This document shows, piece by piece, positions 15,648-35,587 of a stretch of DNA of 64,000 bases (within the stretch, counting starts at the first letter, position 1; each line of letters begins with the position of its first letter). Under the pieces are notes generated by a model. It was not told where the DNA came from. It was given only the letters and a program-made list of their open reading frames with translations, and ran no database searches. Origin of the DNA: Planctomycetota bacterium (lineage in GTDB: Bacteria; Planctomycetota; Planctomycetia; JALXBF01). The DNA lies in the NCBI GenBank assembly GCA_026991575.1, contig JALXBF010000069.1, positions 1 through 64,000 of the forward strand, given 5' to 3'. The translations under genes and the position numbers were made by a program.

Positions 15648-16586
15648 TTGCTACGCAGGCGTGAGGACGCTTCGCTGGGTGCGCGTTCACGGTGCGAACG
15701 CGGTGCCTCTGTGTGTTTGGCGATGCCGCGATCTTCTACCACGAGAGCTGGCGCGCGGGAGGCGGACTCGGTGGCTTGCGCTGCAGGTGATTGCCGAAGG
15801 CCTGATGGTCGAACCGGTGGCCAGGGTGGCGCCAGGCCGGGGCCGGGTCGAGGGCGCTGGAAGGCGCGGCGCTGGGTCCTGTGGTTACCGAGAAGCTGGG
15901 TTCAGTGGCTACGCAAGAGGTACTACGTGTGGCAGATCCATCGCGGTAAGTTCGACGCCGATGAGCCAGCGTATCACGTCCTCACCCACTTAATCGGGCC
16001 CGGCGATGTGGTTGTCGACGTCGGCGCAAACGTCGGCCGCTACACCATCCAGATGGCAAGGCTTGTTGGACCAAGTGGCCACGTCATCGCTATCGAGCCA
16101 GTACCAGAAACCGCCGAAGTGCTGCTGGCCAACGTCCGCAGCGCTGACCTTCATCAGGTTACCATCGTGCAGGCAGCAGTCTCCGACCGCATCGCTGTAG
16201 CGCAGCTTCGAATACCAATTCAGGATACCGGCTTTGCGGCACACTATTTCGCCCACCTCGTTGATGTCGAAGACCAGCCAAGCCACGAGGTGATCCCGGT
16301 GCTGTGCTGCACCGTCGACAGCCTCGTTGGGAAGCTTCCGGTGAAGCTGGTCAAGATTGACGTTGAAAAACACGAAGACCGGGCCTTGCATGGCATGAGC
16401 CGTACCCTCTCCGACACACGTCCATTTGTCGTGATCGAGCCAAGCGAGCGGAACACGTATGAGCTCTTCAAAGCGTTCGACTATGACGGCCGCTGCCTGG
16501 CCGGGTCCCAAGACTGGCTCTTCTGGCCGCGCGAACAGTCGTCGCTAGCCTCTGAGGCTTTGGCTCGCCTGGGTATCGGTTCGTAG
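15648..16586 (+). CDS. FkbM-family methyltransferase; start uncertain (15723 or later)
   Basis: 'VVVDVGANVGRYT', 'IAIEPVP', 'AAVSD', 'VKIDVEKHE' and 'RPFVVIE'. Confidence 0.88.
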   Translation: MLRRREDASLGARSRCERGASVCLAMPRSSTTRAGAREADSVACAAGDCRRPDGRTGGQGGARPGPGRGRWKARRWVLWLPRSWVQWLRKRYYVWQIHRGKFDADEPAYHVLTHLIGPGDVVVDVGANVGRYTIQMARLVGPSGHVIAIEPVPETAEVLLANVRSADLHQVTIVQAAVSDRIAVAQLRIPIQDTGFAAHYFAHLVDVEDQPSHEVIPVLCCTVDSLVGKLPVKLVKIDVEKHEDRALHGMSRTLSDTRPFVVIEPSERNTYELFKAFDYDGRCLAGSQDWLFWPREQSSLASEALARLGIGS

Positions 16587-16813
16587 CCGGCGCCACACGA
16601 CCGGTGCTTGCAGATGGCGCGCGGTGCTCCGGCACACACTGCCCCGCTGGCGCCGAGCGGCGCTCAGGGCAAGCGCATAGCGATAACACGGCTCCGCATG
16701 CCTGTGCCGTGTGCACGCGACAAGAGGGCGCGACCGGAACGCTGACACGTTTCATACTCTGGAGCGGGTTCCCATCTAAAAAAAGAAGACGCTGATCTGC
16801 GGGCCTTCCTGCG

Positions 16814-19800
16814 ATGACGCTCCGCTTTGCCGAATTGACGGGCGATCGTAGTCCATTGCACGTCGACCGCCAGTACGCGCAGCGCGCGGCGTACGGACGA
16901 CCGGTCGTCCACGGCATGCGCGTCGTCCACGAGATGCTCGCCGTACTTGCGGCACACGTGTGCTCACGTCACCACCAAACCGCTCAGCAAAGCCGCCACG
17001 ACCTGCTACAGCCGACGACACCGCCAGGTGCCCCGACGCCCGGGAACAGTTCAGAGGACGCCGGCAAACGACATGTGTCCGCGCCTGGGCGTCCAGTGAT
17101 GACGGCAACCGGGGCAATCACCGTCGAATTCCGCAACCCCGTGTTCCCCGGCGACCGGCTACGCATCAGCTGGTCCCGGACCGGTTCGGCCACCGCTGCT
17201 GGAGGACCGTCCGCGCCGGCTACCGGCGCTACGGCCACACCCAACGTACACACCCATGGCAGGGAAGCGGTCCAGAACATGGGGCAGGCATCAGGTGCGT
17301 CGGAACTTCTCGACCAAAGCGACAACAACAGCTTGGGGCAAGCCAGTAACCGCACATGCCCCATCCACGACGACTTGTCCGCGTATACCTTACGTGGTGT
17401 CGCTGAGACAGAACGAGGTATCGCGGCGGTTGTCGAACTAAGTGTTCCTTACGATACCGAACTGGCCCGGAGGGCAGCCTCGGCGAGAGAAGCTCTCCGC
17501 CCCGTCTACGTGACGCTGGCTGAGCCAGCGGCTGATCCCCAGGGAGCAGAGCAATCGGCCACGTTTAACGACGGTGCGCCAAGCGTCCATCCTCCCGAAG
17601 AGGTCAACCGCCTTGACATCGACGACATCCTACTCGATGAGCCAGTCAGGGGCACCTACACGTATCCGGGCACCTCGGCCGCTGACTTAAGACCCGAATT
17701 GCTAACACTCCTGCGGCTCCTTGGACTGTGTAGCTACCTGGTTGGCATGAAGCTGCCGGGCCAACAAGCGCTCTTCGTCAAGGCTCAACTTGAATGGCAC
17801 GCGCTGCAGCACAACCCGCTAGAGGTTCCACTCCACTACGAACTTACGCCAACGCACGTTGATCGAAAGCTTAGACTGGTCGATTGCGCGCTCCTGGTGC
17901 GCACTGCCGACGGTGAGCAGGTAGCCACAGGAAGGCTGCGCAGCTACGTGCGATTCACGCCGGCGGTCCCGAACGTGGCAGCCGTTGTGGGGTATGCGCG
18001 TGATCTGTCCAACGCGCTGAGCGGCAAAGTTGCGCTTGTCTGCGGCGCAAGTCGGGGGCTCGGGGCTGAGATTACCGCGACCCTCGCGCTGGCCGGCGCC
18101 ACGGTGTACGGCACCTATCGATCGAGCAGCGAAGATGCGAAGTCTCTGGCCTCGGCTATCACCCAGCGCGGCGGAAGAGTAGAGCTGCTACAGGGCGACG
18201 TCGGTGATTCGCGGTGGCTCAACGACGTTGTCGAAGGAATCGTCCACAAACACGGGCGTCTGGATCTGCTCGTCCTCAACGCCTGTGGTCAACCGAAGAT
18301 CGGCGCCACCGGCGATGCGTTCCACGACTACCTGACGCGGAACCTCCAGCTCGTCTCCGTGCCGTTGGAGACCGCTTTGCCGGCCTTGCGGCATAGCCGC
18401 GGTGCGGTTTGTCTGGTCTCGTCCAGCTTTGTTGCGCAAGCACCGCGCGGCCTGGAAGCGTATGTGGCTCTAAAGAAGACTGCCGAAGAGCTCATCCGAG
18501 CCCAGGCTTCGGCTGCGCCAGAGGTCTTCTTCCAGATCGCCCGTCCTCCGAAGCTTCAGACCCGCTGGAACGATTCCCCCGCTGGCGTCGTCGGCGCGAT
18601 TCCTTCCTGGTGTGCGGCCGTCGCCATAGTGCAGGGGCTCGCAGCGCAGGCTGACCACCGCGAAGCACCGCGCGACAACGTCCTTGTGCTCGAGCAGTTC
18701 CCGTTGCTCGAGCCGCGGGACGAAGCGGGCTCACGTAGGACAGTATCCCTGGCGATTGCGGCCACGTTCACTGCCGAACCGCTTGGCGAAGAGCTCAAAC
18801 GCTGGGCCCGCCGATTGGCTTGGCAGTTGGACGCGCGTTTCGCTGGTTACAACCAGGTGGTCCAGGAGTTGATCAGCCCGGTTGGTCTGTTCGCCGCCAA
18901 TCGCGACGGTTTGAACGTCGCTCTGGTACGCGTCCGGGATTGGCTGCGGGAACTGTCCGAAGAGGTAGGCAGTGACGCGCAACGATTGCAGGCTCACCTG
19001 GACGACGTAGGCAACCAGATCGTCCAGGCACTGGAGCAGTACGCGGCGGCGGGACGAGCCCCGCTACTGCTTATCGTTGCCCCGTCTGACCTTCCAAAGG
19101 CCACCCCGGCTGACGAACCGATAGCCCGATGGGAGCGAGAACTGATCGCGTGCGCGGAGAAGCTCCGCGCGGTGCACGTCCTTGACGCCAGGCAGTGGCA
19201 CAGCGTATACGGACTGGACACCGCGGATGCAGCTGCCTACTACGACCGCAATCGAGACCGAATTGGACACATCCCGTTCACGCCGTCGTACTACGCGTTC
19301 CTGGCGACGCTGATTGTCCGGCGTGCTTATCGGCTGCTAACGCCTCCGCGCAAGACGATCGTCGTCGATTGCGACAACACGCTCTGGGACGGGGTCGTCG
19401 GAGAAGTTGGCCCGCAGGGTGTGCGATTCGACGAGCACCATCTTGCTCTGCAGCGCAAGCTCGCGCGCCTGGCGGAGTCAGGCGTACTCGTGTGCCTGTG
19501 TAGCAAGAACCAAGAAGACGACGTCTGGGCCGTGTTCGCTCAGCGTGCGAACGAGATGCCGTTACGTCGCGAGCACATCGTCGCGGCTGCCATTAACTGG
19601 ATGCCCAAGTCGCAGAACATCACCGAGCTCGCGCGTAGCCTGAACCTCGGACGCGACAGCTTTGCGTTCCTCGACGACAACCCGGTCGAGTGCGCAGAGG
19701 TGCGCGCAAACTGTCCGGATGTGCTCACGGTCCAATGGCCGCGCGAGCCCGAGCAGGCCCTGAAGCTGCTCAACCACTTCTGGGAGCTCGACCCGCTGGC

Positions 19801-22800
19801 GGCCACAGCGGAGGACCGCAAGCGGACGGAGATGTACCGGCAGGAATTCCAGCGCCAGCAACTGAAGGCGCAAGCGAAAGATTTCGCCGATTTCCTCCGG
19901 TCTCTCGAACTCAAACTGGACTTCCGCCCGTTGAACCGCGAGGATTTGCCGCGCGCCTCGCAACTGACACTACGCACCAACCAGTTCAACTTCACCACAA
20001 TCCGCCGTAGCGAGGCTGAACTCTGGGAGCTCGTCGCCGAGCATGGGTACCGGTGCTGGACAGTACGCGTATCGGACCGGTTCGGGGACTATGGAATCGT
20101 CGGCCTTGTCGTTACCAAGCCGATCAGCGACGCGAGCGACCAACGTGTGCTTGAAGTAGACACGTTCCTGCTGAGCTGTCGCGTGCTCGGTCGTGGCGTC
20201 GAACATAAGATCGTAGCGTTCCTAGCGGAGCAGGCGCTGGCGCTCGGGGCTGAGTACCTAAGATTCCACATTCGCTACACGAAGAAGAACGTCCCGGCGA
20301 GACGGTTCCTGCAGTCGATCGTACCAGCGGAGTGCCTCGAGACCGGCGACGACCACATGTCTTGCATCCTGGAGGCTCGCCGCTACGTTGACCTCAGCTA
20401 CGATCCAGAGCGGCACGCGTGCGAGTCAGAAACGGCCGACGCTCGCTCTGGGACCGACAACCGCGGAAGCGGGGAAGATGGCGGTGCCGAAGACGTCGTG
20501 ACCTGGACGCGTGAGCGTGAACGGCAGATTCTTCGGACCGCTTTCGAGTGGGCTGATCTCGGGAGGGCGAACAGCTCCGGGCAAACCGCCGTCGCCCAGC
20601 AACAACACGAGCCGGCCCCCGCGGGCGCTGCCACGACCGGCGAGGTCCGCCACGTTGTCCTTGATGCGTTTGCCCGGCAACTGGGGATGCCGGCCGAGCA
20701 GGTCGCGCGCGTTGATCGATTGGACCAGCTGGGGTGTGACTCGTTCAAGATCGTCGAGATCACCGTTGCTTTGCTTGAGCGATACCCGCAGCTGCCTGCC
20801 ACGCTGCTGTTCGAGCATCAGACGGTATCGGAGATAGTCCGGGCAATTGAGTCGCACTCTGCCGGCAGTAGTAGCCGCCAGCCGTCTGCTCCTCTGGCTG
20901 CGGCGCGACCGAGGGCTCGTACCGTCAGCGACATTGCCGTGGTCGGTCTGGCATTGCGTTGCGCCGGGGCGAATAGCACTGAGGAGCTCTGGCAGCTGCT
21001 TCGCAGGAAGGGGAGCGCCGTGCGGGAGGTGCCTACCGACCGGCGCCATTTCCTCGGGGTGCTGAGGGATTCGCGGAAGCACTGGGCCGGCCTGCTCGAT
21101 GATCCGGACCGGTTCGATGCCACGTTCTTTGGTATCGCGCCACGCGAAGCCGTCATGCTCGATCCCCAGTTGCGTCTGCTGCTGGAAGTCTCATGGGAAG
21201 CGCTGGAGCAGGCAGGATGGACCGACGGCACAGAGATCGCCAACACTGGCGTGTTCGTGGGGGTCATGTACGGAGACTACGTCTTCGCAGCTAACCAGTG
21301 GGCCGAATCGCAGGCGTACCCGTACCGCTGCTGGGAAGGGTTCAGCATTGCCAACCGCCTGTCCCAGATTCTGGGATTCCACGGCCCCAGTGTCGCGGTC
21401 GACACGGCCTGCTCCTCTTCGGGAACGGCGCTTTACATGGCGTGCCGTGCGCTGCGAGCCGGGGACTGCAAAGCCGCCGTCGTCGGCGGTGTGAACCTGA
21501 TCCTTGATCCCAACCGTTTCAGCCAGCTGGGACGCCTCGGTATCTTGTCCCCCGATGGTCGCTGCCGGCCGTTTGGAGAAGAGGCGAACGGAACGGTACT
21601 GGGCGAAGGAGCCGTCGCGCTTGTACTGATGCCGGTTGATGAGGCTGTTAAGCAGGGTTGCACCATACTGGGTGTGATCAAGGGGGTGGGCATCAGCCAC
21701 GGCACCGGCACAGTCGGTTTCACGGCTCCTAACCCGACAGCGCAGGCGATTGCGATTCGCGAAGCGATTAGAGCGGCGGGAATCGATCCGAGAACCATTT
21801 CGTTTGTCGAAACGCACGGCACCGGAACAGCATTGGGTGACCCGATTGAGACACGAGGACTGCAGCTGGCGTACGAGGATCGCTCACTGTGGTGCGACGA
21901 GGAGCTGGCCGACGCCGCGCCCCTGCGGCTCGGTGCGATCAAGCCGAACGTCGGCCACCTGGAGGCCGGTGCCGCGTTAATCGGTGTAGCCAAGGTTCTC
22001 TTGCAGTTTCAACACCAAGAGCTCGCTCCCACGATCACCTCGGAGCGGCCAAATCCTCAGGTTCCCTGGGACCGTACCCGATTTGTTGTTCAACGTGACC
22101 GCGCCCCGTGGGAGCGGCCTCGCCTGCGGTGCAAGGATGGAACGGTGCGAGAGTTCCCACGCCGGGCCGGAGTCAGCTCGTTCGGCGTTGGCGGTGCGAA
22201 CGTGCACGTTGTGCTGGAGGAACCGCCGAGTGTGGCTCTCGAACAGCCGACGCACGACGAGCCGGACCGGACGTGGCACGTCCTGGCTCTTTCGGCACGT
22301 AGCCCCGAGGCCCTTCGTGCCTATGCCGGCAAGGTTGCTGAGTTCCTCCGCCGTACGACCGACGACCAGATGGCCAACGTTTGTTACTCGTTGGCCGTCG
22401 GTCGAAGAGCGTTCGAGTACCGGCTCGCGCTGCCCTGTCGTTCGGCTGACGACGCACGTCGAACTCTGGCTGCCTTTGCAGAAAGTGGTGAGCTCCGAGC
22501 AGGCCACACAGGACGCACCGCCGGACAACGCCCGCGGGTGGCGTTCCTGTTCACCGGGCAGGGAGCCCAGTACGTCTCGATGGGCAAGGGACTGTACCGA
22601 TCGAACCCAGTGTTTCGGCGCGCACTGGACCGATACTTCGCGCTGGTCAACGAACACCTTGATCGTCCGCTACAGGAGGTTGTGTTCGGCGAGGATGACG
22701 AGCTTCTCAAGCAGACGCGATACACCCAGCCGGCGCTCTTCTGCGTGCAGCTTGCCCTGGCCGATCTGTGGCGAGGCTGGGGGGTTGTGCCTGACATCGT

Positions 22801-25800
22801 GTGCGGGCATAGTGTCGGTGAGATTGCCGCGATGGTGGTCGCCGGTGGTTTGAGCCCCGCGGACGGTGCCCGACTGGCTGCAATTCGAGGCCGTCTGATG
22901 GGTGAGCTTCCGGCAGGGGGGACAATGGCCGTGGTGGCGGCACCCGAAGCGGTCGTCCGTGGAGTGCTCGCATCAGGAACATGCATCGCCGCGGTAAACG
23001 GTCCACGGCAGACGGTTATCGCCGGACCGGTAGAAGCTGTCGACCAAACCGTGCGCCAGCTGGAAGCCTCCGGCCACAAAGTGACCAGGCTCCCGGTGTC
23101 GCACGCGTTTCACTCGTCGCTGATGAAACCGATCTTGGGACCGTTCCGCGAGGCGATTCGGGATATCCGATTCCATGCTCCAAAGCTGACCTTCGTCAGC
23201 ACTGTGACTGGGGCTGTCGCCTCAGAGGAACTTACCGATGCCCAGTACTGGGTGGACCAGATCCGGCGGCCTGTACGCTATGCGGATGCCGCGCGCACGA
23301 TCCTTGAGATGGCCGACGTCTGTTTGGAGATCGGTCCACATCCGGTCCTGGTCGGACTCGCACAGACACTGCCGGAAGCGTCCGGCAAGACCTTTGCTTC
23401 TAGCTTGAGGCGTCAGCGCGACGACGAGGCGGTCGTGGCCGACGCGGTTGCCGCCCTGTTCGCGGCAGGCATGCCCATCGACTGGCGCGGCTGGGACGAG
23501 GGGCGAGCACGGCAACGCGTGCAAGTGCCGAGCTATCCGTTCCAGCGAAAGCGGTACTGGATCGGTGCGGTCCCCACGGTCTCGTGCTCCGCGGCTGAGG
23601 AGAGCACCGAACAAACCATAGAACTGGAGACGTACCGACTCGATTGGATCCAAAAGCAACTTGATCCCGGACAGAATCCAGCACAGGTCCTGGTTGTTGG
23701 GACCGGGCAGGAAGCCACGAAGGCTCTCGCCGCCTTCGATTCGGCCGGGATTCCGTGTGCGCACGCGTCCTCGCTACGTGAGGCCGATGGCTCCGAAGCT
23801 GAGCGCTGCCTTGTGCTTGATTTCCGGGCATTGGATAGTGACCTTTCGCCCCAGAGTTTCCCGCAGTTCCTGGCCCGTCTGGCCACAGAACTGTGTGACC
23901 TGCAGCGCCGTTGGAAGGGCCGCAACCACAGTTACTGGCTGCTGACCAAGAATGCAGTCTGCGTCGGGTCGGAGCGTCTGGATCCATGTCACAGTGCCTT
24001 GTGGGGCTTCATGCGTTCAGCAATGCTTGAGTTGCACGACGTGGCCCTCGGCGTGGCGGACGTCTGCGCCGACGGCTGGACCGAGGTGGCAACCGCTCTT
24101 GCCTCGGCCGGTGACGAAGACCAGCTGGCGTTCCGCAATGGCGACGTGTACGCTGTCCGTCTGAGACGCTTTGAGCTGCCGGACAATGCGCAGCAGCCCG
24201 ACGTCGATCCGAACGCCATTTACCTTATTACCGGTGGTACCGGATGGCTGGGTGGTGCGATCGCAATTGAGCTGGCCAGGCTTGGGGCGCGGAAGATATG
24301 GCTCGTCAGCCGCCGCGGATTGGTCTCCGAAGGCGTTCTCGAAGAGCTACGGCGGCTCGGGGTCGCCAGCGAAGATGTGCGTGTCGTACGAGCTGACGTA
24401 GCATGTCCCGACGCGGTGCGTCGACTAGCCGATGAGATCCGTTCCGCTGGGGCCCGGCTCGGCGGCATTGTTCATGCGGCCGGCGTTGATCGGCCCACGT
24501 CGCTCAGCAGGCTCCAGGCGGACGATGTGGCGGCCGTCTGGGCGGGCAAGGCAACTGGTGCATGGCAGATTGCTGAGCTTGCGCGCGAGTTCCGGCCAGA
24601 CTTCGTTTGTTTCTTCTCCTCGCTGGCGGCGGCCGTGGGGGCTGCCCGTCGCTCCCACTATGCGGCAGCCAACGCCTTCCTGGACGGTCTCGCCTGTCAG
24701 CTGCACAGCGAAGGCATTCGGGCCACGTCGCTGGCATGGGGGCCGTGGGTTGGTGGTGGCATGGCTGACGCTGGGACGCTGAAGGAGTTTGCACGCATAG
24801 GTAACCTGGCGATTGGCCGGGACGAGGGAACTGGGCTGTTTAGCAAAGTGATCGCGCAGACGACCGTGCCCGCTCACATCGTGGCCGCACGCATTGACTG
24901 GGCACGCTTCGCGCCGGCCTACGAGCTGGTCAGAACTCGTCCGATCATCGAGCTCCTGCGGCCGGGCCCGGTTGCTTCCGGTCAGCGGACCGCGTTTGAC
25001 CGCAGCGCCGTCGAGCGAATCGTGCGCGAGGAATTCGCCCGCGCCCTCGGCTACAACAACGCCGACGCGATCCGTCGAGACGCGGAACTGCTCGCGCTCG
25101 GACTCGATTCGCTCCTCGCCGTGGACATCCTCACGCGGCTTCGCAAGCGATTGCCTCTGCCAGCGGGATTGTCGCTGTTCGACTATCGGACGCTGCACGA
25201 CGTGGTTGACGCGATTGCCGCGTACGCAGTGTGTACGGAAGCGGCGCCTGCGGGTGCGCCGCCTCAGTCCAATGCCGAAGTGCTCGACATCCTTCGCCGT
25301 GCCGCGGCCGAGACCCTTGGACTCGATGTCGAGGCGGTCGCGACGGACCGGCCGCTCAGTGCCCTTGGCATGGACTCGCTGATGGTTGCGGACTTCCTGA
25401 CCCGCGTGCGCAAAGCCACAGGCCGGTCCCTGTCGTCGTTTGCTCTTGACCGGGACACACTGAGTGAACTGGCGGAACAACTGTCCGCGGATGGTGAGAA
25501 GAGCCGCTCGACCGGCCGACCCGCAACACCATCGGGACGAGCCGTCCGGTACCGGCCGGAACTGGAGCCGGCCATCTACTCGTTCTGCCGGGAAGCATGG
25601 CCCGATCGGGCTCCTGAGCTGATCCCCGCGCGCTGGCGTTGGATGTTCGTGCAGTCGGCGCAGCGCCTGGGTATCGATCCCGCGGTGTGGCTTTATGTTG
25701 AAGATGGCCGGGTGCTGGGCCACAACGGAGCCATCCCCGTGCGTCTCCAGGTCGGTGACCGCGAGGTCACCACAGCCTGGTTTGTCGACACGATGGTCCT

Positions 25801-26696: not shown

Positions 26697-28532
26697 ATGT
26701 GCGGGATTGCGGGGCAAGTTGGGGTTGGCGTTGAGAAGGCCGCGGTAGAGCGGATGCTGACTTGCATCGTGCACCGCGGGCCGGACGACCAGGGGGTGTT
26801 CGCCGATGAAGGGATTGCCTTCGGCATCCGGCGGCTGAGCATCATCGACATTGAGGGCGGTAAACAGCCCGTTTCCAACGAGGACGGATCCATTCACGTG
26901 GTCCTCAACGGAGAAATCTACAACTACGTCGAACTCCGTCAGGAACTGCTCCGCCGTGGTCACCAATTCCGCTCCCAGGGCGATACCGAGGTCATCGCTC
27001 ATCTGTACGAAGAATACGGTGACCGCTTCGTCGATCACCTCAACGGCATGTTCGCCATTGCCCTGTGGGATAGCCGCAACCGCCGGTTGCTGCTTGTTCG
27101 TGACCGGCTAGGCAAGAAACCCGTGTACTGGTGCTACCAGGATGGCAGGTTGTGGTTCGGATCCGAGCTCAAGTGCCTGCGGGCCGTCGATGCCCCGGTG
27201 GGACAGACGGATCTCACGTCAGTGTACCACTACCTGGTCCTGGGGTACATGCCGCACCCGCACACGGTGTACACAAACGTCCGCCAACTGCCTCCAGGGG
27301 GGATGCTGGAGTACCGCGACGGGCATGTGCGGGTGGATCGGTACTGGGAGTTCCGAGCCAGCGTCCGTCAGTGGGACGAACGGGAGGCGGCGGAGCACTT
27401 GCGTGACCTGTTAACGGATGCGGTCCGCATACGGTTGCGCAGCGACGTTCCGTTGGGGGCCTTCCTGAGCGGTGGTCTGGACTCCAGCATCGTCGTTGCG
27501 CTCATGGCACAACTCAGTCCAGCGCCGGTGAAGACGTTCCACATCCGGTTCAGCGACGATCCGGCCCCGGAGCACGAGTATGCGCAGGCGGTGGCCGACC
27601 AATATGGGACTGAGCACCACGTACTGACGGTCACGCCGGAAAAGATGGACGTGCTGGACCGTATCCTGGACATGTACGACGAACCGTTCGGTGACTCGTC
27701 CGCCGTCCCTACTTGGTACGTGTCCGGGCTGACGAAGCAGTACGTCACGGTAGCACTTGCCGGTGACGGGGGCGACGAAAGCTTCGCCGGGTACAACCGC
27801 TACCGCGTTGCACTGCAGCGCCGCCGCCTTCGGCGGTGGATTGGGCCGGCGTGCCGGTTGCTTGGACCAGCTGTCTGGCATCTCACCCCGCACAGCTTCC
27901 CCGGCCGACGGATGATCCGTGCCCTCGGGATGGATGGATATCGCGAATTTGCTTCGGGTATGCCGGAACTTGAGACGCGTTGGCTATTGGGCCCGGCGCT
28001 TCGACCGGCTGTGAACGGCACGACGACATGGGAGGTGGTCCGGCGCGATATCGAAGCGGGGGATCCTACAGACCCACTGTCGCCCTTTACTGCGTTCGAC
28101 ACCAGGCGCTATCTGCCAGACGACATCCTGGTGAAGGTCGATCGCGCCAGCATGTCGCATGCCCTGGAGGTGCGTGCGCCGCTGCTGGACTACCGCGTGG
28201 TGGAATTTGCGGCGACATTGCCCGCAGAGCTGAAGCTCGACAATCGAGGGGGCAAGCGGCTCCTGAAGATTGCTTTCGGTGACATGTTGCCGGAAAAGGT
28301 GCTGGAGCCCCGGAAGCGCGGCTTTTCCGCGCCGCTGCGGGAATGGCTTGCGGGCGAGCTGGCGCCGATGATCGAATCGGATGTGCTCAACGGCATTCTG
28401 GTACGGGAGCGGCTCATCGATCGCGATGCTGTGCAAGTCCTCGTCGACGAGCACCGCCGTGGCCGCCGCGACCATCGGAGGATGCTGTGGCGCTTGCTGG
28501 TCCTTGCGCGCTGGCTGCGGAGGTTCGGGTGA
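26697..28532 (+). CDS. asnB: Asparagine synthase (glutamine-hydrolysing)-like amidotransferase
   Basis: N-terminal 'MCGIAG', 'HRGPDD', 'NGEIYN', 'RDRLGKKP', 'LSGGLDSS', 'GDGGDE' and 'KVDRASM..LEVRAP'. Confidence 0.95.
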   Translation: MCGIAGQVGVGVEKAAVERMLTCIVHRGPDDQGVFADEGIAFGIRRLSIIDIEGGKQPVSNEDGSIHVVLNGEIYNYVELRQELLRRGHQFRSQGDTEVIAHLYEEYGDRFVDHLNGMFAIALWDSRNRRLLLVRDRLGKKPVYWCYQDGRLWFGSELKCLRAVDAPVGQTDLTSVYHYLVLGYMPHPHTVYTNVRQLPPGGMLEYRDGHVRVDRYWEFRASVRQWDEREAAEHLRDLLTDAVRIRLRSDVPLGAFLSGGLDSSIVVALMAQLSPAPVKTFHIRFSDDPAPEHEYAQAVADQYGTEHHVLTVTPEKMDVLDRILDMYDEPFGDSSAVPTWYVSGLTKQYVTVALAGDGGDESFAGYNRYRVALQRRRLRRWIGPACRLLGPAVWHLTPHSFPGRRMIRALGMDGYREFASGMPELETRWLLGPALRPAVNGTTTWEVVRRDIEAGDPTDPLSPFTAFDTRRYLPDDILVKVDRASMSHALEVRAPLLDYRVVEFAATLPAELKLDNRGGKRLLKIAFGDMLPEKVLEPRKRGFSAPLREWLAGELAPMIESDVLNGILVRERLIDRDAVQVLVDEHRRGRRDHRRMLWRLLVLARWLRRFG

Positions 28533-28641: not shown

Positions 28642-29982
28642 ATGCGAATCCTGTTCATCTCCAAGTGGCATGTCCTCCCGGCGGATACCGGGGGGAAGAT
28701 TCGGACATGTCAGGTGCTGAAGGGGCTGGCACGGCGGCACGAAGTGCATCTGGTGTATAACACGGTCGGCAGACCGAATGCCAGAGGTCGCTGGGAAGGT
28801 AGGGCTCTCAGCGGCCATGGGTGCTCCTTCGGGCGCGACGCAGGCGGGCCTGGTGATGTACCCTCCGATAGTGGGTTCCTGGATGGCGTGCGCTGTCATG
28901 CGGTGCCGACCACGACGCCCGCGCAGCGTGACTGGCGGTACTGGCTAGCCCTGGGACGTAACTTCGTTCACCCGGCTCCTTTTAACGCCCACAAGGATCG
29001 CGATCCGGCCCTGATACGAGCGGTCAGCGAACTGTGCCACCGCCTGCAGCCGGACGTCGTCATCTGCGACTTCGTCCAAACGGCACTCAACTGCAACGGG
29101 ATCCACCACTGGCCCAGCGTGCTGTTCCAACACAACGTCGAGGCGGAAGTCTTCTGGCGACAGGCGCGGCGCGCCCCGAAAGGAACGTGGCGTGCACTGT
29201 TTGCCCTGCAGGCGCAGAAGATGCTCCGCTTCGAACGCGACATGGTCCGGCGGTTTGACGTGGTGGTGGCGATCTCCGAGCGAGACAAGGTTCTTTTCGA
29301 ACAGCTCTACGGCTGCCGGAATGTGTTCGTCATCGATACGGCCGTCGATGTCGAACGATACGCTGACGTTCGGCCGGATCGACGTTCAAGACGCGTGCTC
29401 TTCATCGGCGGGCTTGACTGGATCCCGAACCCTCATGGCGTTACTCACTTCTGCCGGCGCATCTGGCCTTTGATTCGCGCCGAAGTCCCGGACGCGACGT
29501 TCGAAATCGTCGGTCGCAATCCCGGACCGGACCTTGCCGAGGTCGTCTCCGGCATACCGGGTGTCACTTTGGTGGGCACGGTACCCGATACCCGGCCATA
29601 CCTGGCGCGGGCCGCCGTTTGCGTCGTGCCGCTGTACATGGGTGGGGGTACGCGGATGAAGATCTACGAGTATATGGCCCCCGGGCTTCCCGTTGTATCG
29701 ACTTCGCTGGGCTGCGAGGGGCTGCCGGTGCGCCATGGCGAGCACCTGCTGGTAGCCGATTCGGACGAGGCGTTTGCCCGCGCTGTCGTTCGGCTGCTGA
29801 GCGATCCGGAGTACGCACAGCGGATCGGGCAGCAGGCCGCCAGCTTCGTCCGACAGAATTTCGCAGCCGACGTCGCGGCCGTCCAGTTCGAAGGCCACCT
29901 ACGCCAGGCGATCCGGTTGTTCCGCGCAAGACGAACCGCGGAGAATAACCGTTCTGTGAAGGGGGCCAGCGCGAGGGCATAG
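28642..29982 (+). CDS. Glycosyltransferase family 4 (PEP-CTERM/EPS-associated type)
   Basis: 'PADTGGKIRT', 'QHNVE', 'GLDWIPN' and 'GGGTRMKIYEYMAPGLPVVSTSLGCEG'. Confidence 0.9.
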   Translation: MRILFISKWHVLPADTGGKIRTCQVLKGLARRHEVHLVYNTVGRPNARGRWEGRALSGHGCSFGRDAGGPGDVPSDSGFLDGVRCHAVPTTTPAQRDWRYWLALGRNFVHPAPFNAHKDRDPALIRAVSELCHRLQPDVVICDFVQTALNCNGIHHWPSVLFQHNVEAEVFWRQARRAPKGTWRALFALQAQKMLRFERDMVRRFDVVVAISERDKVLFEQLYGCRNVFVIDTAVDVERYADVRPDRRSRRVLFIGGLDWIPNPHGVTHFCRRIWPLIRAEVPDATFEIVGRNPGPDLAEVVSGIPGVTLVGTVPDTRPYLARAAVCVVPLYMGGGTRMKIYEYMAPGLPVVSTSLGCEGLPVRHGEHLLVADSDEAFARAVVRLLSDPEYAQRIGQQAASFVRQNFAADVAAVQFEGHLRQAIRLFRARRTAENNRSVKGASARA

Positions 29983-30065
29983 GGCTACGTAGATATTGCC
30001 AGGCGACCAAACTCAGCGATCGCATCCGGTGTGCTGCACCAGCGAGCCACCTGGTCTAGACCAAC

Positions 30066-31298
30066 TTGAGCAGGACCATCTCGTCCGTTGTAGGGTCGGC
30101 GAGAAGACTGATCTGGACGGTCGGCCGGACAAGATTGCAGCCGATTGAGACGATCGGACGCGCTGATCCACGGGCACGCTGCGTTCGGTTCTTCGCGACG
30201 ATCGGGTTCGTGGACACGAATAAATCACCTGCTGTGAGCGAGCGCGGCCAAGTCGTCTATCTGATCGTTACGGTCGACACTGAAGAAGAAGGGCTTTGGG
30301 GGGGAAGCTACCCGGTCGACGGCGGCACCGTGCGCAACGTCCTCGAAGGAGTTCCACGGTTTCAGGAGCTGTGCGATCGGTACGGAATCCGGCCCGTGTA
30401 CCTGATCGACACTCCGGTGGCGACGGATCGTGAAGCGGCCAGTCTGTTGCGATCACTCCAGGACGAAGGGCGATGTGAAGTCGGCGCGCACCTGCATCCG
30501 TGGTGTACGGAACCTCACATCGACTACAGGTTCCCTCGCGATTCGTACATGATGAACCTACCAGTCGAGGTGCAGCGGGCGAAGCTTCGGACACTGACGC
30601 AGCAGATCGAAGAGTCCGTCGGCCACCGTCCCGTTTCGTTCCGCGCCGGCCGCTACGGGCTGGACCGGCACGGAGCCGCGATTCTGCATGAACTGGGCTA
30701 TGCGATTGATTCGAGCGTCGTTCCGTACACGCGTCACACGGCTGAGGGCGGACCGGATTTTAGTTCTGCTCCACTCGCGCCCTTTCACGTCGATACCGAC
30801 TCGGCGGATCCGACAGGTGCTCTCGTCCCGACCGACGGCGATGACGGACTGCTGGAAGTGCCCGTGGCCGCGGGCTACACGAGAACTCCCTTTGAGTGGC
30901 GGCACAGGCTGCGCGACAGGCTGGAACGCTCATTCCTGCGGAAGCTCAAGGCTGTCGGCGTTATCGATCGGCTCGGCATCGCGCGCCGGGTCAAATTCTC
31001 CCCGGAGCAGGCTAGCTGTTCGGACATGCGAGCGCTGGTGGACTGCTACCTCAAGTTGGGCTTGCCTTGCATGGTGATGATGATGCACTCCAGCTCGCTT
31101 GCCGCAGGCTACTCACCGTATGCCTCTGATCGAGCTGCTCTGGAGCGGTTTTACGCGCGACTAGAAGATGCGTTTGCCTACGCCCTGGAACGTGGCTTGC
31201 AGCCGGTGACTTTCCGCGAGTTCCACGCCGCCTTCGTAAGCCAGGGGACCGTTCCTAAGGAGCAAGCTGGCGCCGGTAGCCTGCCCAGCGCTCGGTGA
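30066..31298 (+). CDS. Polysaccharide deacetylase (WalW-like, NodB fold); the true start is probably ~30234
   Basis: 'VTVDTEEE', 'EVGAHLHPW', 'SFRAGRYG', 'DSSV' and 'HSSSL..GYSPY'. Confidence 0.85.
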   Translation: MSRTISSVVGSARRLIWTVGRTRLQPIETIGRADPRARCVRFFATIGFVDTNKSPAVSERGQVVYLIVTVDTEEEGLWGGSYPVDGGTVRNVLEGVPRFQELCDRYGIRPVYLIDTPVATDREAASLLRSLQDEGRCEVGAHLHPWCTEPHIDYRFPRDSYMMNLPVEVQRAKLRTLTQQIEESVGHRPVSFRAGRYGLDRHGAAILHELGYAIDSSVVPYTRHTAEGGPDFSSAPLAPFHVDTDSADPTGALVPTDGDDGLLEVPVAAGYTRTPFEWRHRLRDRLERSFLRKLKAVGVIDRLGIARRVKFSPEQASCSDMRALVDCYLKLGLPCMVMMMHSSSLAAGYSPYASDRAALERFYARLEDAFAYALERGLQPVTFREFHAAFVSQGTVPKEQAGAGSLPSAR

Positions 31299-31574: not shown

Positions 31575-33071
31575 ATGAGTGTAACTATCTGCGACCTGTT
31601 CCGCTGGTCGGCCCGGTCTCATCCCGGGGATCCGTGCATCTGGTACAAAGGGCGTACGTACACATATGCCCAGCTGTGGAACCAGAGTGTGGCGATCGCT
31701 GGCTGGCTACGTCAACAGGGTCTCCGGGCCGGAGACCGGGTCCTGATCTACGGTAAGAATTCGCCGGAGTACGCAGCGGCATATTTCGGTACATTATTAG
31801 CGGGCGGGATCGCTGTCCTCTGCGGACCGGCCTTTTGCCAGCGTGATCTACGCGAGATCGTTCGCGATAGCCACCCCCGCGCTGGCATTGGCTGCGGTTC
31901 ATTTTTTCAAACGCTCCAGCGCTGCGGCGCGCTTCCGGCAGGTATCCCAACACTGTCGTTCTGCGAGCCAGACGGCGACGGGACCGTGTCATCGCTGCAT
32001 GCGCAGGCGCGCGGGCTAGGAGATAACTGCCCTGAACCAGAGCCGTCGGATTTCGCCCATATCATCTACGGCACTGACAGCGCTGGAAGGTGGCGCGGCG
32101 CAACCTTTCGCCACTGCCATGTCACCCACGCCGTCCGTACGCTGCTGACCACGATCGAATTGGACGACGCAGTGCGGGCCGCCGTGACTCTGCCGTTCCA
32201 CGAGTCGCCGGGGTTGCTCGGGCTGGTGCTGTTGACCGCAGTCGGAGCAGAAATCGTCCTTGCCAACTCAACCCCATTGCCAACCCACGACGATGTGGAC
32301 ATGCTGTGGTTGCGTTCGGCTGCTGTGCCCGAGGTCATCGATAACGCCGGATCAGACCTGCCCGAGCAGTTGATCTGTTGGGGGCCCAGCGACACCGACG
32401 TGCACGGTCCCCTGCGGGAACTGGGGGTGCAAACCGCCGCCTTCCACTGGCACCACACGGTGGCTGGCCCGATCCTGAGGATCCTGTCGTTTGACGGGGA
32501 TGCTGTGGGCAAACCAGTCGATGGCATCCACGCACAGGTGCAGAGCAAATGTTCCTGCGGTCATGGTGACTGTCCTGGTGAGCTCGTTGTCTCGGGCGAT
32601 TCCGTGATGGCAGGGTACTGGGACCGCATTCAGGCAGCAGCTGTGGACGGTGAGCAGGAACCTGTCGGCACCGGCGACCTGGCCATCAGGGAATCTGAAG
32701 ACCGAATTCGCCTCCTGGGCAGAGCCGACCGATCGTTCTACGTGGAGGGCCGACGCGTCCACCCTGCGGAGATCGAAAGAGTGCTGGTGCAGCTCACAGG
32801 AGTGCGCCATGCTGTGGTTGTGCCACTAACGTCGAGCAGCGGCGCTAACACCGCTGGAGCGGTTGTGGTGCTAGCCTCCGCTGCCGCTACAAGCAAGCAG
32901 GAGATCCTGGAGTACTGTGCTCAGCAGCTCCCGGAACACAAGCGACCGGTTCGGTTGGTTGTAGCCGATCGTATACCGACCAACGGTGACGGCTCGCCTG
33001 ACACACGAGCCATACGAGCGCTACTTCTGAATGAGGCCGCATCCGGTAGGTCTTCCGTGAGTCAGGCTTGA
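31575..33071 (+). CDS. Class I adenylate-forming (AMP-binding) family protein with degenerate core motifs
   Basis: 'TYAQL', 'GDRV', 'GELVVSG..VMAGYW', 'TGDL', 'GRAD' and 'VHPAEIE'. The P-loop and terminal Lys motifs are altered. Confidence 0.8.
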   Translation: MSVTICDLFRWSARSHPGDPCIWYKGRTYTYAQLWNQSVAIAGWLRQQGLRAGDRVLIYGKNSPEYAAAYFGTLLAGGIAVLCGPAFCQRDLREIVRDSHPRAGIGCGSFFQTLQRCGALPAGIPTLSFCEPDGDGTVSSLHAQARGLGDNCPEPEPSDFAHIIYGTDSAGRWRGATFRHCHVTHAVRTLLTTIELDDAVRAAVTLPFHESPGLLGLVLLTAVGAEIVLANSTPLPTHDDVDMLWLRSAAVPEVIDNAGSDLPEQLICWGPSDTDVHGPLRELGVQTAAFHWHHTVAGPILRILSFDGDAVGKPVDGIHAQVQSKCSCGHGDCPGELVVSGDSVMAGYWDRIQAAAVDGEQEPVGTGDLAIRESEDRIRLLGRADRSFYVEGRRVHPAEIERVLVQLTGVRHAVVVPLTSSSGANTAGAVVVLASAAATSKQEILEYCAQQLPEHKRPVRLVVADRIPTNGDGSPDTRAIRALLLNEAASGRSSVSQA

Positions 33072-33263: not shown

Positions 33264-34349
33264 ATGCCCCGATCCGATCCGATGCTGCAGACGTCGGTAT
33301 CGACAGAAATTGTCCGTTCGGTAGATGTCATTCGGACTGCGCTGCCCAAGAACGGGGCGGGCACTGAGTCGCGCCGAGCAGTGCCAACGTCATGGCGTCC
33401 GGAATGGCTAACGGTGCTCGCAGACGGCCTTGGCCATGAACCGTATGCTGTGCGAGCTGTCGTCCCCTCTGGTACCGCCGTGGGCTGGCTCCTATTGGCA
33501 AGGGTGCGCCATCCACTGTTTGGTCACGCCCTAGTTTCGCTGCCGTATGTCAGCAGCGCGGGGCCGCAGGCGGAGGATGCTGTGGTTCAGGGGCAATTGC
33601 TCGACGAGGCCGTTCGGCTCGCGGAGGAGCTGGACGTTGACCACGTCCAGATTCGCATGGAGTCGCCGCTGGAGCACGAAGCGTTCACGGCGGTCCGGCG
33701 TGACAAGGTGATGATGCGCAGGGCACTACCGCCTTCAGTCGAGGAGCTGTGGAAGGAACTGAAGCCCAAAGTCCGCAACCAGGTCCGGAAAGGCGAACGG
33801 TCACAGCTAACAGTGCACTGGGGCCGGGACGAACTGCTCGCAGACTTCTACCGCGTCTTTGCTCGCAATATGCGCGACCTCGGCACGCCCGTGTACCCGA
33901 GGCGGCTCTTCGCCGCGATGCTAAGACACTTCGGCGATCGGTGCGAGATCTGCGTGGTCCGCGGCCCAGAAGGGACTCCGTACGCCGCAGCCATCCTGGT
34001 CCACGGTGACGGGTCCACTGAGGTGCCCAGCGCCAGTTCGCTGCGCGAGTACAACTCCACCTGCGCGAACATGCTGATGTACTGGCACCTGCTCAAACGC
34101 ACCATCGAACGCGGACAACGACAATTCGAGTTCGGACGCTCCACCGTTGACAGCGGCCCGTACCGGTTCAAGAAGCAGTGGGGGGCACAGCCGACGCAGC
34201 TTTACTGGTACTACCACGTCCGCCGCGGTGATCCGACGGCTGTCCGACCGGACAGCGAACACTATGCGTGGAAGGTGCGGATGTGGCAGAAGCTGCCGCT
34301 GTGGCTGGCGAATACGCTCGGCCCTTGGCTCGCCCGCGGCATTCCGTAA
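33264..34349 (+). CDS. FemAB-like GNAT protein (XrtA/PEP-CTERM EPS-associated type)
   Basis: 'LVSLPY', 'RNQVRKG', 'NMRDLGTPVY', 'NMLMYW' and 'FEFGRST..SGPYRFKKQWGA'. Confidence 0.9.
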   Translation: MPRSDPMLQTSVSTEIVRSVDVIRTALPKNGAGTESRRAVPTSWRPEWLTVLADGLGHEPYAVRAVVPSGTAVGWLLLARVRHPLFGHALVSLPYVSSAGPQAEDAVVQGQLLDEAVRLAEELDVDHVQIRMESPLEHEAFTAVRRDKVMMRRALPPSVEELWKELKPKVRNQVRKGERSQLTVHWGRDELLADFYRVFARNMRDLGTPVYPRRLFAAMLRHFGDRCEICVVRGPEGTPYAAAILVHGDGSTEVPSASSLREYNSTCANMLMYWHLLKRTIERGQRQFEFGRSTVDSGPYRFKKQWGAQPTQLYWYYHVRRGDPTAVRPDSEHYAWKVRMWQKLPLWLANTLGPWLARGIP

Positions 34350-34372
34350 GCTCAGAACCCTGACCGAGACCC

Positions 34373-35587
34373 GTGACGACGTTTCTCACAGCGCTGTTCT
34401 GGACCAGCGTCGCGTTGGTCGCGTACCACCTGGTTGGCTACGTAGCGGTGCTGCGCCTGGTCAGCGCCTTGCGCGGTCGCCGTGACCTGAGGCGCCCGCA
34501 GAACACCGCCGACTGGCCCACTGTCTCGCTGATCATCCCGGCACACAACGAAGCAGGGGTAATCGCCGACACGCTGCGCTCGGTTGCCGGGCTTGACTAT
34601 CCGCCCGACCGCCTCGAGGTCATCGTGGTCGATGACGGTAGCACGGACGGCACCGCTGAGCGGGCGCGGCAGGCGTGTGACGGAAAGCGGCTGCGCGTGC
34701 TGGAGGTCCGCCCGAGGCAGGGAAAGCCGAACGCTCTTGCCGAAGGTAGCCGGGTTGCCCGCGGCGACGTGCTCTGCTTCATGGATGCGAACGTCACGCC
34801 GAAGGCGGACTCGCTGCGTGCCCTTGTAGCTGCCCTGTCGAGCGATCGCATCGGTGCCGCCTCAGCGTTTGTGCACTTGAGAAATGAAGGAACTGACCTG
34901 CACATCGGGGAGAGCATCTACTACGGGGTGGAACACAGGCTGCATGGCCTGGAAACTCGTACAGGCAGTGCGCTGAGCGTAGACGGCAGCATGTACGTCG
35001 TCCGCCGCAGCCTGTACCAGCCATTGCCAAAGGACACGATCCTGGACGATTTCGTCACCAGCATGAATGTGGTCCGTCAGGGAAAGGACGTCGTTTTTGT
35101 ACCGGGAGCGACGGCAAGCGAGGCAGGCACGGAGAGCCTTGCGGATGAGTGGAAGCGGAAGAAACGGCTCGCGGCTGGATCGTTCCAGAGCCTGTGGCGC
35201 AGGGCGTTCCCCCCGCTGTCTCGGCCGGTGTTGCTCTGGCAGTTTGTGTCTCATAAGCTGCTGCGCTGGTTGCTCCCGTGGCTGCTCGTGGTGATCGTGG
35301 TGACGGGCTTTGCCCTGCGCGATAGGTCGCCCGTCTACTGGTTGGCGAGCCTGCTGATCGTGGCAGCGGCGGCTCTGGGGCTGGCTGGCGTACTGATCCG
35401 GCCCTTGCGACGTGTGCCCCCGTTCGGCCTGTTGGCTTATGCATTGGTCAGCCTGACCGCGTTCGCACTCGGACCGCTGCTGGCGTTCCGGCAGGGGGTG
35501 CTGTGGGAGAAAGCATCGCGAGCAGGCGTTGACGAGAAACGCTCGGCCGCAACGCTAACACCGGAAGCACATGTCTCCGTGGAGTAG
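34373..35587 (+). CDS. Glycosyltransferase family 2, paralog of 247..1422
   Basis: 'IIPAHNEA', 'DDGSTDGT', 'FMDAN', 'ILDDF' and 'SHKLLRW'. Confidence 0.9.
   Translation: MTTFLTALFWTSVALVAYHLVGYVAVLRLVSALRGRRDLRRPQNTADWPTVSLIIPAHNEAGVIADTLRSVAGLDYPPDRLEVIVVDDGSTDGTAERARQACDGKRLRVLEVRPRQGKPNALAEGSRVARGDVLCFMDANVTPKADSLRALVAALSSDRIGAASAFVHLRNEGTDLHIGESIYYGVEHRLHGLETRTGSALSVDGSMYVVRRSLYQPLPKDTILDDFVTSMNVVRQGKDVVFVPGATASEAGTESLADEWKRKKRLAAGSFQSLWRRAFPPLSRPVLLWQFVSHKLLRWLLPWLLVVIVVTGFALRDRSPVYWLASLLIVAAAALGLAGVLIRPLRRVPPFGLLAYALVSLTAFALGPLLAFRQGVLWEKASRAGVDEKRSAATLTPEAHVSVE

Follow-up and report, generated by a model that had tools for sequence, protein, structure and literature searches.

A Planctomycete Polyketide Synthase with a Terminal Tandem-GNAT Domain in a Glycan Locus: A Candidate Route to Polyketide-Acylated Glycans

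Introduction

A polyketide synthase (PKS) gene in a glycan locus is not unprecedented, because RkpA and WcbR are type I PKSs encoded among the capsule biosynthesis and export genes of rhizobia and Burkholderia (rkp/wcb; PMC3908369). Genome mining files PKS genes as secondary metabolite clusters. Here, we describe a PKS gene from a Planctomycetota bacterium (GCA_026991575.1; 4.96 Mb in 191 contigs) that lies in a run of glycan genes within the first 64,000 nucleotides (nt) of contig JALXBF010000069.1 (C69 in our numbering), a stretch that we refer to as the window. We propose that this locus would make a surface or secreted glycan bearing a short polyketide-derived acyl group, with the PKS acting as a tailoring enzyme. 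We hold with moderate confidence that the PKS uses one malonate to extend a starter derived from glycerate into a C5 acyl chain with two or three hydroxyls, and that its GNAT end transfers this chain to a glycan amine unmasked by a deacetylase.

Several described systems resemble parts of this proposal. Nod factor is made by the GT2 synthase NodC, the CE4 deacetylase NodB and the N-acyltransferase NodA, the latter fed by the acyl carrier protein (ACP) and ketosynthase (KS) pair NodF/NodE, with sulfation by NodH/NodPQ; LpxC and LpxD of lipid A biosynthesis follow a like logic. N-myristoyltransferases have a tandem-GNAT fold and transfer acyl groups carried as pantetheine thioesters to amines. 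Loading modules of the order dehydratase-reductase-FkbH-ACP, as in BryA and FR901464, are said to give lactyl starters. FkbH loading is listed in one source as the conversion of 1,3-bisphosphoglycerate and ACP to D-lactate-ACP (PMC7901079), and another has FkbH-like proteins and an ACP carrying glycerate (PMC4979870). Hydroxy-acyl groups on surface sugars also have a precedent: VC0248–VC0252 make tetronate, which acylates the perosamine amino groups of the Vibrio cholerae O1 antigen (PMC3441752). A gene with an fkbH domain, cj1302, belongs to a flagellar glycosylation locus of Campylobacter jejuni (PMC7099621).

Domain Organization of the PKS

The PKS is a single module with the domain order MaoC hotdog, SDR, FkbH, ACP, KS, acyltransferase (AT), ketoreductase (KR), ACP, ACP and C-terminal tandem GNAT. 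Its parts are as follows, with PKS residues in brackets:

16814-26659, + strand: PKS, 3281 aa, with KS, AT, KR and three PP-binding stretches (Pfam)
16814-18013, + strand: MaoC-type hotdog dehydratase (aa 1-400); PF01575, 52.2 bits, in two stretches around a low-complexity insert
18026-18733, + strand: classical short-chain dehydrogenase/reductase (SDR) of the keto-reducing type (aa 405-640; aa 405-566 when the protein was scanned in pieces); PF00106
19349-20323, + strand: FkbH domain (aa 846-1170); TIGR01686, 322.1 bits against a cut-off of 146.65
20654-20851, + strand: loading ACP (aa 1281-1346); PF00550, 1.2e-10; LGCDSF
20930-22039, + strand: KS (aa 1373-1742); PF00109, 9.9e-73, and PF02801, 2.1e-30; DTACSSS, HGTGT, NVGHLEAG
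22544-23425, + strand: AT (aa 1911-2204); PF00698, 5.3e-64; GHSVGE, HAFH
24215-24748, + strand: KR (aa 2468-2645); PF08659, 2.4e-51
25016-25480, + strand: two tandem ACPs (aa ~2735-2889); PF00550 in two stretches, 82.6 bits; LGLDSL, LGMDSL
25571-26656, + strand: C-terminal tandem-GNAT domain (aa 2920-3281, 362 aa); PF13527, 27.2 bits against a cut-off of 25

The extension module has the hallmarks of a type I modular (cis-AT) PKS, namely the KS cysteine and two histidines, the AT GHSxG motif, a KR and the ACP serines. We take the HAFH motif of the AT to indicate malonyl specificity; the stereochemical-type motifs of the KR were ambiguous by eye. No canonical release domain (thioesterase, reductase or condensation) was present among the Pfam and NCBIfam matches of the PKS, and the lack of a thioesterase reported in a first-pass annotation of this DNA was borne out by the same searches.

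The FkbH domain is the sole FkbH match in the genome. It scores above the TIGR01686 cut-off, carries the HAD DxDxT motif and a conserved cysteine in its C-terminal half, and is followed by an ACP. In our FkbH alignment (A1), the DCDNT and SCRVLGRG stretches were invariant, as were residues D7, D9, T11 and C277; this cysteine is presumably the acyl-enzyme site. A Pfam GNAT match at aa 1065-1166 was considered as a second acyltransferase and rejected because it falls within the TIGR01686 span (aa 846-1169), and so represents the second half of FkbH.

Upstream of FkbH, the hotdog translation contains the readable stretch LTGDRSPLH, presumably the hydratase motif. The closest solved relatives of the SDR are glucose 1-dehydrogenase and FabG 3-oxoacyl-ACP reductases (E 1.6e-17 to 1e-12), not FabI-type enoyl reductases. 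The SDR starts at aa 405 in the window PKS versus near aa 270 in homologues. A Pro/Ala/Ser/Gln-rich insert of ~130 aa lies within the hotdog of the window PKS (16960-17400, aa ~50-200).

The C-terminal domain gave GNAT matches to both of its halves in a profile search against the PDB, and Acetyltransf_9 was matched in 22 of the 23 members of an alignment (A2) of ten fused and thirteen stand-alone relatives. An R-x-x-G-x-G stretch is conserved in the first half. The AlphaFold2 model of the domain had a pLDDT of 89.7, and its top Foldseek matches were N-myristoyltransferases (E 6e-14, TM 0.55-0.58, ~12% identity). Based on this fold, we propose that the domain may be an off-loading N-acyltransferase. 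Membership of the N-acyl amino acid synthases or of FemX was rejected, as the domain had no NCBIfam match and Foldseek placed N-myristoyltransferases first.

Relatives of this domain also occur outside PKSs. A protein-cluster search with the 362 aa C-terminal part returned only stand-alone GNAT clusters without names. Stand-alone relatives with 40-44% identity to the domain were found in loci L154 (2768-11029) and L167 (318-7429), where the order is Fe-type alcohol dehydrogenase (ADH), AMP-ligase, LuxE, LuxC, SDR, the GNAT-like gene, and then GT2 or FemAB. This cassette is a second acyl-supply route to the same type of transferase, and its ADH-ligase-LuxE-LuxC-SDR set presumably resembles the V. 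cholerae O1 tetronate genes wbeK-O. In a genome of the window's phylum, a locus without a PKS (L223) has the order GT4, 4,6-dehydratase, DegT, Wzx, radical SAM, FkbH, a 75-aa open reading frame (ORF), GNAT-like gene, MaoC, DegT and epimerase. In L187 (1999-5314), a match to the C-terminal domain at a contig edge is followed, at a distance of at most 3.5 kb, by genes for a TPR protein and for the only exosortase seen beside the domain (PF09721, 178 bits).

A search with PKS residues 1-1350 gave 1040 matching proteins at E<=0.001. Among the best 120 of these, per-domain BLAST detected FkbH in 120, KS and SDR in 118 each, AT in 115, KR and hotdog in 114 each and the C-terminal domain in 107, with the domains collinear; lengths clustered at 3000-3300 aa, and identities were 40-59%. 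Source names of homologues include Allorhodopirellula heiligendammensis, Desulfobacteraceae, Vicinamibacterales and Luteitalea. Of 401 sampled genomes of the window's phylum, 36 had a match to the FkbH part (a 661-aa query) and 95 had one to the C-terminal part; stand-alone proteins account for nearly all of these matches, and the fused PKS is therefore patchily distributed. Apparently, the PKS belongs to a widespread and undescribed family that is specialized for glycan loci; searches of the open-access literature found no description of a PKS and tandem GNAT combined for glycan decoration. One further protein, P0015, is a 4489-aa "eukprot" gene model in which GT2, UDP-glucose dehydrogenase, SIS and GATase domains are fused to a PKS of this architecture. 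The model probably represents a bacterial operon mistaken for a single eukaryotic gene, and would then be an independent case of PKS-glycan adjacency.

Gene Content of the Locus

According to the ORF listing, Pfam and NCBIfam, the PKS gene is part of a co-oriented run of glycan genes on the + strand. The other genes of the run are:

247-1422, + strand: GT2a, a synthase-like membrane glycosyltransferase (GT) of family GT2; PF00535, 1.3e-20; three hydrophobic segments; RLLRW motif
2081-3736, + strand: GT-C type (PMT_2-like) membrane glycosyltransferase; PF13231, 29.1 bits against a cut-off of 26.1; seven hydrophobic segments
5298-6677, + strand: GT4a, a GT4 glycosyltransferase; PF13692, 7.4e-34, and PF00534, 4.7e-32
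6646-9015, + strand: fusion of ADH_zinc_N and GFO/IDH/MocA oxidoreductase, a sugar oxidoreductase candidate; PF01408, 2.4e-20, and PF00107, 8e-14
9089-9871, + strand: S-adenosylmethionine (SAM) methyltransferase; PF13649, 3.7e-23
9807-10814, + strand: APH-like kinase; PF01636, 7.4e-7
11027-12550, + strand: Wzx/MOP flippase; PF13440, 7.7e-72; ten hydrophobic segments
15648-16586, + strand: FkbM-family methyltransferase; PF05050, 2e-15, 57.8 bits; TIGR01444, 91.9 bits against a cut-off of 37.7
26697-28532, + strand: AsnB-type glutamine amidotransferase; PF00733, 6.4e-100
28642-29982, + strand: GT4b, an stp1-like GT4 glycosyltransferase; PF13692, 8.4e-28
30066-31298, + strand: CE4-fold polysaccharide-deacetylase-like protein, named from its fold and its homologues
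31575-33071, + strand: AMP-forming acyl/aminoacyl ligase; PF00501, 1.7e-34
33264-34349, + strand: FemAB-family protein of the XrtA/PEP-CTERM-associated type; TIGR03019, 326.7 bits against a cut-off of 260.35
34373-35587, + strand: GT2b, a synthase-like membrane GT2 and the final gene of the run; PF00535, 2.9e-26, and PF13641, 6.8e-23

FkbM is separated from the PKS by 227 nt, the PKS stop codon from AsnB by 37 nt, and FemAB from GT2b by 23 nt. The first-pass annotation had read FkbM, PKS, asnB (with the same 37 nt spacing), GT4, an adenylation-like protein, FemAB and GT2, with Wzx and further glycosyltransferases upstream, and all of these were recovered at the positions it gave and on the + strand by ORF calling, Pfam and NCBIfam. 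In NCBIfam, the oxidoreductase fusion weakly matched UDP-GlcNAc 3-dehydrogenase (NF040723, 3.8e-8), Wzx scored 196.5 bits against NF007773, under its cut-off of 273, and GT2b, which has four hydrophobic segments and an HKLLRW motif, had PgaC_IcaA as its top NCBIfam match (1.6e-23), far under the cut-off.

The ORF at 30066-31298 had no match to Pfam (including PF01522) or NCBIfam at E<=0.001, and its true start is probably near 30246. Its 1688 homologues are ~330 aa long, and some carry the source names "polysaccharide deacetylase family protein" or "WalW". An AlphaFold2 model (pLDDT 89.6) had as top Foldseek matches the putative polysaccharide deacetylase 3rxz, ArnD (8t0j) and HP0310 (3qbu), with probability 1.0 and TM 0.48-0.65. 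In a 25-sequence alignment (A3), D11, E13, E14, H82 and H84 were invariant, the aspartate and histidines among them being candidates for a metal site; a profile search of the PDB with the family returned deacetylases only at E 0.3-0.5. The label "deacetylase" given to this gene by the first-pass annotation therefore holds at the level of fold, based on the likeness of the model to putative polysaccharide deacetylases, ArnD and HP0310, but it is not one that any Pfam or NCBIfam model recognizes.

Synteny of Related PKSs

Two sets of loci were compared. Species-representative genomes scanned with the FkbH alignment (A1) gave 80 loci, 12 of which have a PKS of the same architecture, and a metagenome scan with an alignment of the C-terminal domain (A4) gave 80 more, 33 of which are fused to a PKS and have at least 1 kb of flank. 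As a control, the GT2, GT4, AsnB, FemAB, Wzx and CE4-like proteins of the window were used in tblastn searches (E<=1e-6, >=40% coverage) of loci of at least 15 kb. The counts below depend on how ORFs were called in high-GC DNA, on labels taken from BLAST and on a Pfam coverage that is partial; near-identical metagenome copies were removed by hand, and the relatives are not independent of one another.

In the like-for-like control, relatives of the window's glycan genes were found in 7/7 family loci versus 5/42 other FkbH loci, and the PKS-glycan arrangement is therefore beyond chance. Pfam searches of the flanks showed glycan genes in 8/9 family loci of the genome set with at least 1 kb of flank. 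In the metagenome set, at least one gene of a glycan class lay within ~8 kb in 24/33 loci (21/29 after removal of copies); by class, GT4 was seen in 17 loci, UDP-glucose dehydrogenase in 9, GT2 and CE4-like in 5 each, AsnB in 4 and Wzx in 3, along with others. Over both sets, about 29/38 non-redundant family loci have glycan genes nearby. The first-pass annotation had named homologous PKSs lying mostly outside glycan loci as an outcome that would refute its reading, and this outcome was not observed.

Around the family PKSs lie genes for GT2 and GT4, UDP-glucose dehydrogenase, Wzx/Wzy, sulfation and deacetylases; the titles of the records concerned are Planctomycetota, Acidobacteriota (Vicinamibacterales, Luteitalea), Nitrospirales and Desulfobacterales. 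Individual loci include:

L063: sulfotransferase, UDP-glucose dehydrogenase, GT4, GT2, GT2, methyltransferase, CE4-like
L064 (Nitrospirales record): FemAB, CysD, CysNC, GT2-GT2 fusion, carboxyltransferase
L065: AsnB, methyltransferase, Polysacc_deac_1, GT4, GT2, GT2, CE4-like
L066: GT4, GT4, Wzy_C, CE4-like
L069: CE4-like, methyltransferase, GT4, GT2
L082: Wzy_C, GT4s, heparinase-like, sulfotransferase, MBOAT
L086 and L124: GT4

Homologues of GT2a adjoin the PKS in L063, L064, L065, L069, L184, L186 and L194, and in many loci the family PKS is flanked by relatives of GT4a. In L065, L066, L067, L069, L169, L184, L186 and L194, the start of the PKS directly adjoins the CE4-like gene, and in L063 the distance between them is one gene. 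A canonical Polysacc_deac_1 gene abuts the PKS in L210; a deacetylase is near the PKS in 10 of the ~25 non-redundant loci with readable upstream DNA. The linkage that the first-pass annotation had expected between the PKS and asnB, glycosyltransferase, deacetylase and femAB genes was therefore found for glycosyltransferases and, in a subset, for deacetylases, but asnB was seen in only 4/33 metagenome loci and in L065, and femAB only in L064 and in two further loci for which fusion to a PKS was not established.

Several features of single loci were also noted. Phosphopantetheinyl transferase genes precede the PKS in L171 and L198. In L064, where the family PKS has no hotdog or SDR, the gene directly upstream of it (7581-9122) encodes a carboxyltransferase (acyl-CoA carboxylase beta), which may provide a local supply of malonyl-CoA. 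In L148 (3055-5070), L151 (4977-7025) and L190 (7892-10084), the PKS is directly followed by a protein of 670-730 aa that ends in a Sulfatase domain (alkaline-phosphatase superfamily), a layout that we take to be like that of LtaS/EptA-type head-group transferases. In L124, a zinc-ADH gene (3-941) adjoins GT4 near a family PKS (compare the unusual 789 aa ADH_zinc/GFO-IDH-MocA fusion of the window). The SAM methyltransferase and APH-like kinase pair of the window (9089-10814) recurs downstream of a family PKS in L155 (17156-18971) and L202 (~6469-8155), and may be a conserved methylation/phosphorylation tailoring pair.

The rest of the window holds features of other kinds. The ORFs 14537-15391 (- strand) and 35972-36736 (+ strand) are probably not genes, as they had no family matches and have Arg/Pro-rich translations. 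At 36996-41058, a 1109-aa ORF with no family match overlaps, in a different frame, a 337-aa ORF with LVIVD repeats; this may reflect a frameshift or a single long beta-propeller protein. Farther along are:

41755-44478, - strand: DUF11-repeat protein
55918-59406: PVC-type haem protein (NCBIfam)

Proposed Pathway

From the domain set, motifs and gene context, we hypothesize that acylation would proceed in six steps. In the first, based on the established chemistry of its family, FkbH would load a glycolytic C3 unit from 1,3-bisphosphoglycerate as glyceryl-S-ACP. The MaoC dehydratase and SDR may then turn glyceryl-ACP into lactyl-S-ACP by way of pyruvoyl, through dehydration followed by reduction; family members without the hotdog and SDR would retain the glyceryl starter, and ORF lengths place the PKS start after the hotdog-SDR part in three family loci (L064, L175 and L198). 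In the third step, KS would join the starter to one malonyl unit selected by AT, and KR would reduce the 3-keto group, so that the predicted product is 3,4-dihydroxypentanoyl-S-ACP, or 3,4,5-trihydroxypentanoyl-S-ACP from glyceryl.

In the absence of a thioesterase, the tandem GNAT, judging by its fold and context, would next move the acyl group from the phosphopantetheine arm to an amine. The most likely acceptor is a hexosamine of the glycan, or of its lipid- or nucleotide-linked precursor, which the co-located CE4-like enzyme would first de-N-acetylate. Last, the GT2, GT4 and Wzx proteins would build and flip the glycan, and, more speculatively, FkbM or the SAM methyltransferases may O-methylate acyl hydroxyls or sugars. 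For AsnB, the amidation of uronates, as put forward in the first-pass annotation, would be a candidate role. The scheme of deacetylation followed by re-acylation, also from that annotation, gains from the CE4-like fold, the homologues that abut the PKS in nine non-redundant loci, and a tandem-GNAT fold like that of transferases acting between acyl-thioesters and amines; its product and acceptor are still read from context.

We tentatively extend this idea, as something possible rather than probable, to a class of single-module PKSs found over several phyla, in which a tandem GNAT replaces the thioesterase and writes a C5 polyol acyl group onto de-N-acetylated hexosamines of a glycan made by paired NodC/PgaC-like synthases, a glycan that in relatives is also sulfated and methylated. 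Such a polyketide-glycan hybrid would combine a logic like that of Nod factor with a new form of PKS release.

Alternative Explanations

Several observations weigh against this proposal. The product, the acceptor and the transcript rest on inference, not observation, and the fold match of the C-terminal domain is moderate (TM ~0.55, 12% identity). Proteins, amino acids and polyamines are also among the acceptors of GNATs and of N-myristoyltransferase-like folds. The window holds no aminotransferase that would serve a dedicated amino sugar. A deacetylase is co-located in only 10/~25 loci, all apparently of a Planctomycetota subgroup, and in the window two genes lie between it and the PKS. It is also conceivable that the hotdog and SDR work on the extended chain and not on the starter, which makes the exact product uncertain. 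Lastly, no recognizable glycan gene is near the PKS in 9/33 metagenome loci (8/29 non-redundant), although these nine mostly have short flanks or ORFs that could not be annotated; L151 has acyl-CoA dehydrogenase, AMP-ligase and GDSL lipase genes instead.

These glycan-negative loci would be expected if the PKS made a free small molecule, perhaps a signal, in the form of a hydroxy-gamma-lactone or of an N-acylated amino acid or amine, with the glycan genes either independent or serving to glycosylate it. The absence of a thioesterase fits this reading, as on chemical grounds a 4-hydroxy-acyl thioester could self-lactonize as an alternative exit from the PKS, and the GNAT enzymes include N-acyl amino acid synthases. 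However, a conserved and confidently folded terminal transferase speaks against spontaneous release, and that domain matched no NCBIfam model, and hence no N-acyl amino acid synthase model. Chance adjacency is opposed by the control (7/7 versus 5/42) and by a linkage that is kept across records from four phyla even as the neighboring glycan genes change. Consistent with the first-pass annotation, no small-molecule exporter or regulator, nor an ABC exporter, was seen in the window with Pfam and NCBIfam. We therefore consider a free product unlikely.

The same glycan context fits equally well with a PKS that supplies the primer for building the glycan or the anchor for attaching it, so that the acyl group would be an aglycone or linker and not a side decoration. 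That role has been proposed for RkpA/WcbR in capsule loci (PMC3908369), and the LtaS/sulfatase-type membrane proteins after the PKS in L148, L151 and L190 could move a head group. Yet a C3 starter extended once yields a C5 acid, which is hydrophilic and so no membrane anchor. The terminal GNAT and co-located deacetylase point to an amide on an existing sugar, and stand-alone GNAT relatives lie beside amino-sugar genes (L223); in our judgment, an anchor role is decidedly improbable.

That the tandem GNAT acylates a protein or lipid amine, such as that of an aminolipid or at the N-terminus of a PEP-CTERM or other secreted protein, is very improbable: protein N-myristoyltransferases are the top structural matches, an exosortase and at least three PEP-CTERM proteins are encoded in the genome, genes for a FemAB of the XrtA-associated type, an AsnB-like protein and a ligase are adjacent, and L187 has an exosortase 3.5 kb from the C-terminal domain, but the exosortase and PEP-CTERM genes are on other contigs, the structural match concerns the tandem-GNAT fold only (~12% identity), and the recurrent neighbors are glycosyltransferases, UDP-glucose dehydrogenase and deacetylases, not candidate protein substrates.

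Implications

If the PKSs of this family decorate glycans, many clusters predicted as "orphan T1PKS" in environmental phyla such as Planctomycetota and Acidobacteriota are wrongly classified. A tandem GNAT that hands the finished chain to a sugar amine would give PKSs a new off-loading logic, which would be of use in engineering. The surface glycans of these little-studied bacteria would carry unusual polyol-acyl amides that could affect hydration, adhesion, phage recognition and the chemistry of sulfated glycans. The proposal also offers a handle for testing, as it concerns one protein and one predicted C5 acyl group, and cultured carriers exist.

Comparison with Known Systems

Some genes of the window recall the exopolysaccharide loci of the XrtA/PEP-CTERM exosortase type. 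FemAB passes the TIGR03019 cut-off, whereas for the other genes the models of that system are best or near-best matches that stay under their cut-offs: AsnB had TIGR03108 (XrtA/PEP-CTERM amidotransferase) as its top NCBIfam match with 610.4 bits against 816.9, GT4b scored 187.1 bits against 316.65 for TIGR03087 (stp1), and the AMP-ligase 122.6 bits against 592.35 for TIGR03098 (exosortase A-associated ligase). There is no exosortase in the window; the single match in the genome (230 bits) is on contig C181, and the PEP-CTERM matches are on C190, C180 and C29.

The start of the PKS resembles the FkbH pathways to polyketides and tetronates, with which it shares FkbH and the ACP that follows it, here with hotdog and SDR preceding FkbH. 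Those pathways start a long polyketide, whereas the window module would feed a single extension, released by the tandem GNAT, in a glycan locus. The PKS-less cassette of L223 has the same parts; in the window they are fused in 3281 aa with KS-AT-KR inserted, and the predicted acyl group is therefore C5 and not C3. At the other end of the PKS, the N-myristoyltransferases share the tandem-GNAT fold and convert an acyl thioester on a pantetheine arm to an amide, as the C-terminal domain is predicted to do, but they differ in acceptor, chain length and biological context, and the likeness is at the level of fold alone.

The V. cholerae O1 tetronate pathway is likewise a dedicated gene set that puts a hydroxy-acyl group on a sugar amine of a surface glycan, but has neither a PKS nor FkbH. 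Nod factor and LpxC/LpxD share the logic of deacetylating a GlcNAc-type residue and N-acylating it from an acyl-ACP made by a dedicated KS and ACP, a textbook analogy and not a claim of membership. Parts of a Nod-like kind do occur in family loci, namely synthase-like membrane GT2 genes in pairs, a deacetylase of CE4-like type, sulfotransferase and CysD/CysNC, and both membrane GT2s of the window, which have an (R/K)LLRW motif, resemble synthase-type GT2s. With 52.6 bits (GT2b) and 30.4 bits (GT2a) against the TIGR04242 cut-off of 550, neither scores as a NodC. No NodA-like protein was found in the window, whose acyltransferase belongs to the GNATs, and compared with Nod factor the predicted acyl group is short and polar.

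The embedding of a PKS in a glycan locus, as read in the first-pass annotation, is confirmed here, but RkpA/WcbR provide a precedent (PMC3908369). In Pfam and NCBIfam searches, the window showed Wzx and no ABC exporter. We take RkpA/WcbR to have neither FkbH loading nor a terminal GNAT, and presumably they make a lipid-type moiety. Overall, we rate the system as a variant form of the glycan N-acylation that depends on a carrier protein; where a PKS within a capsule locus is concerned, RkpA/WcbR are the known precedent.

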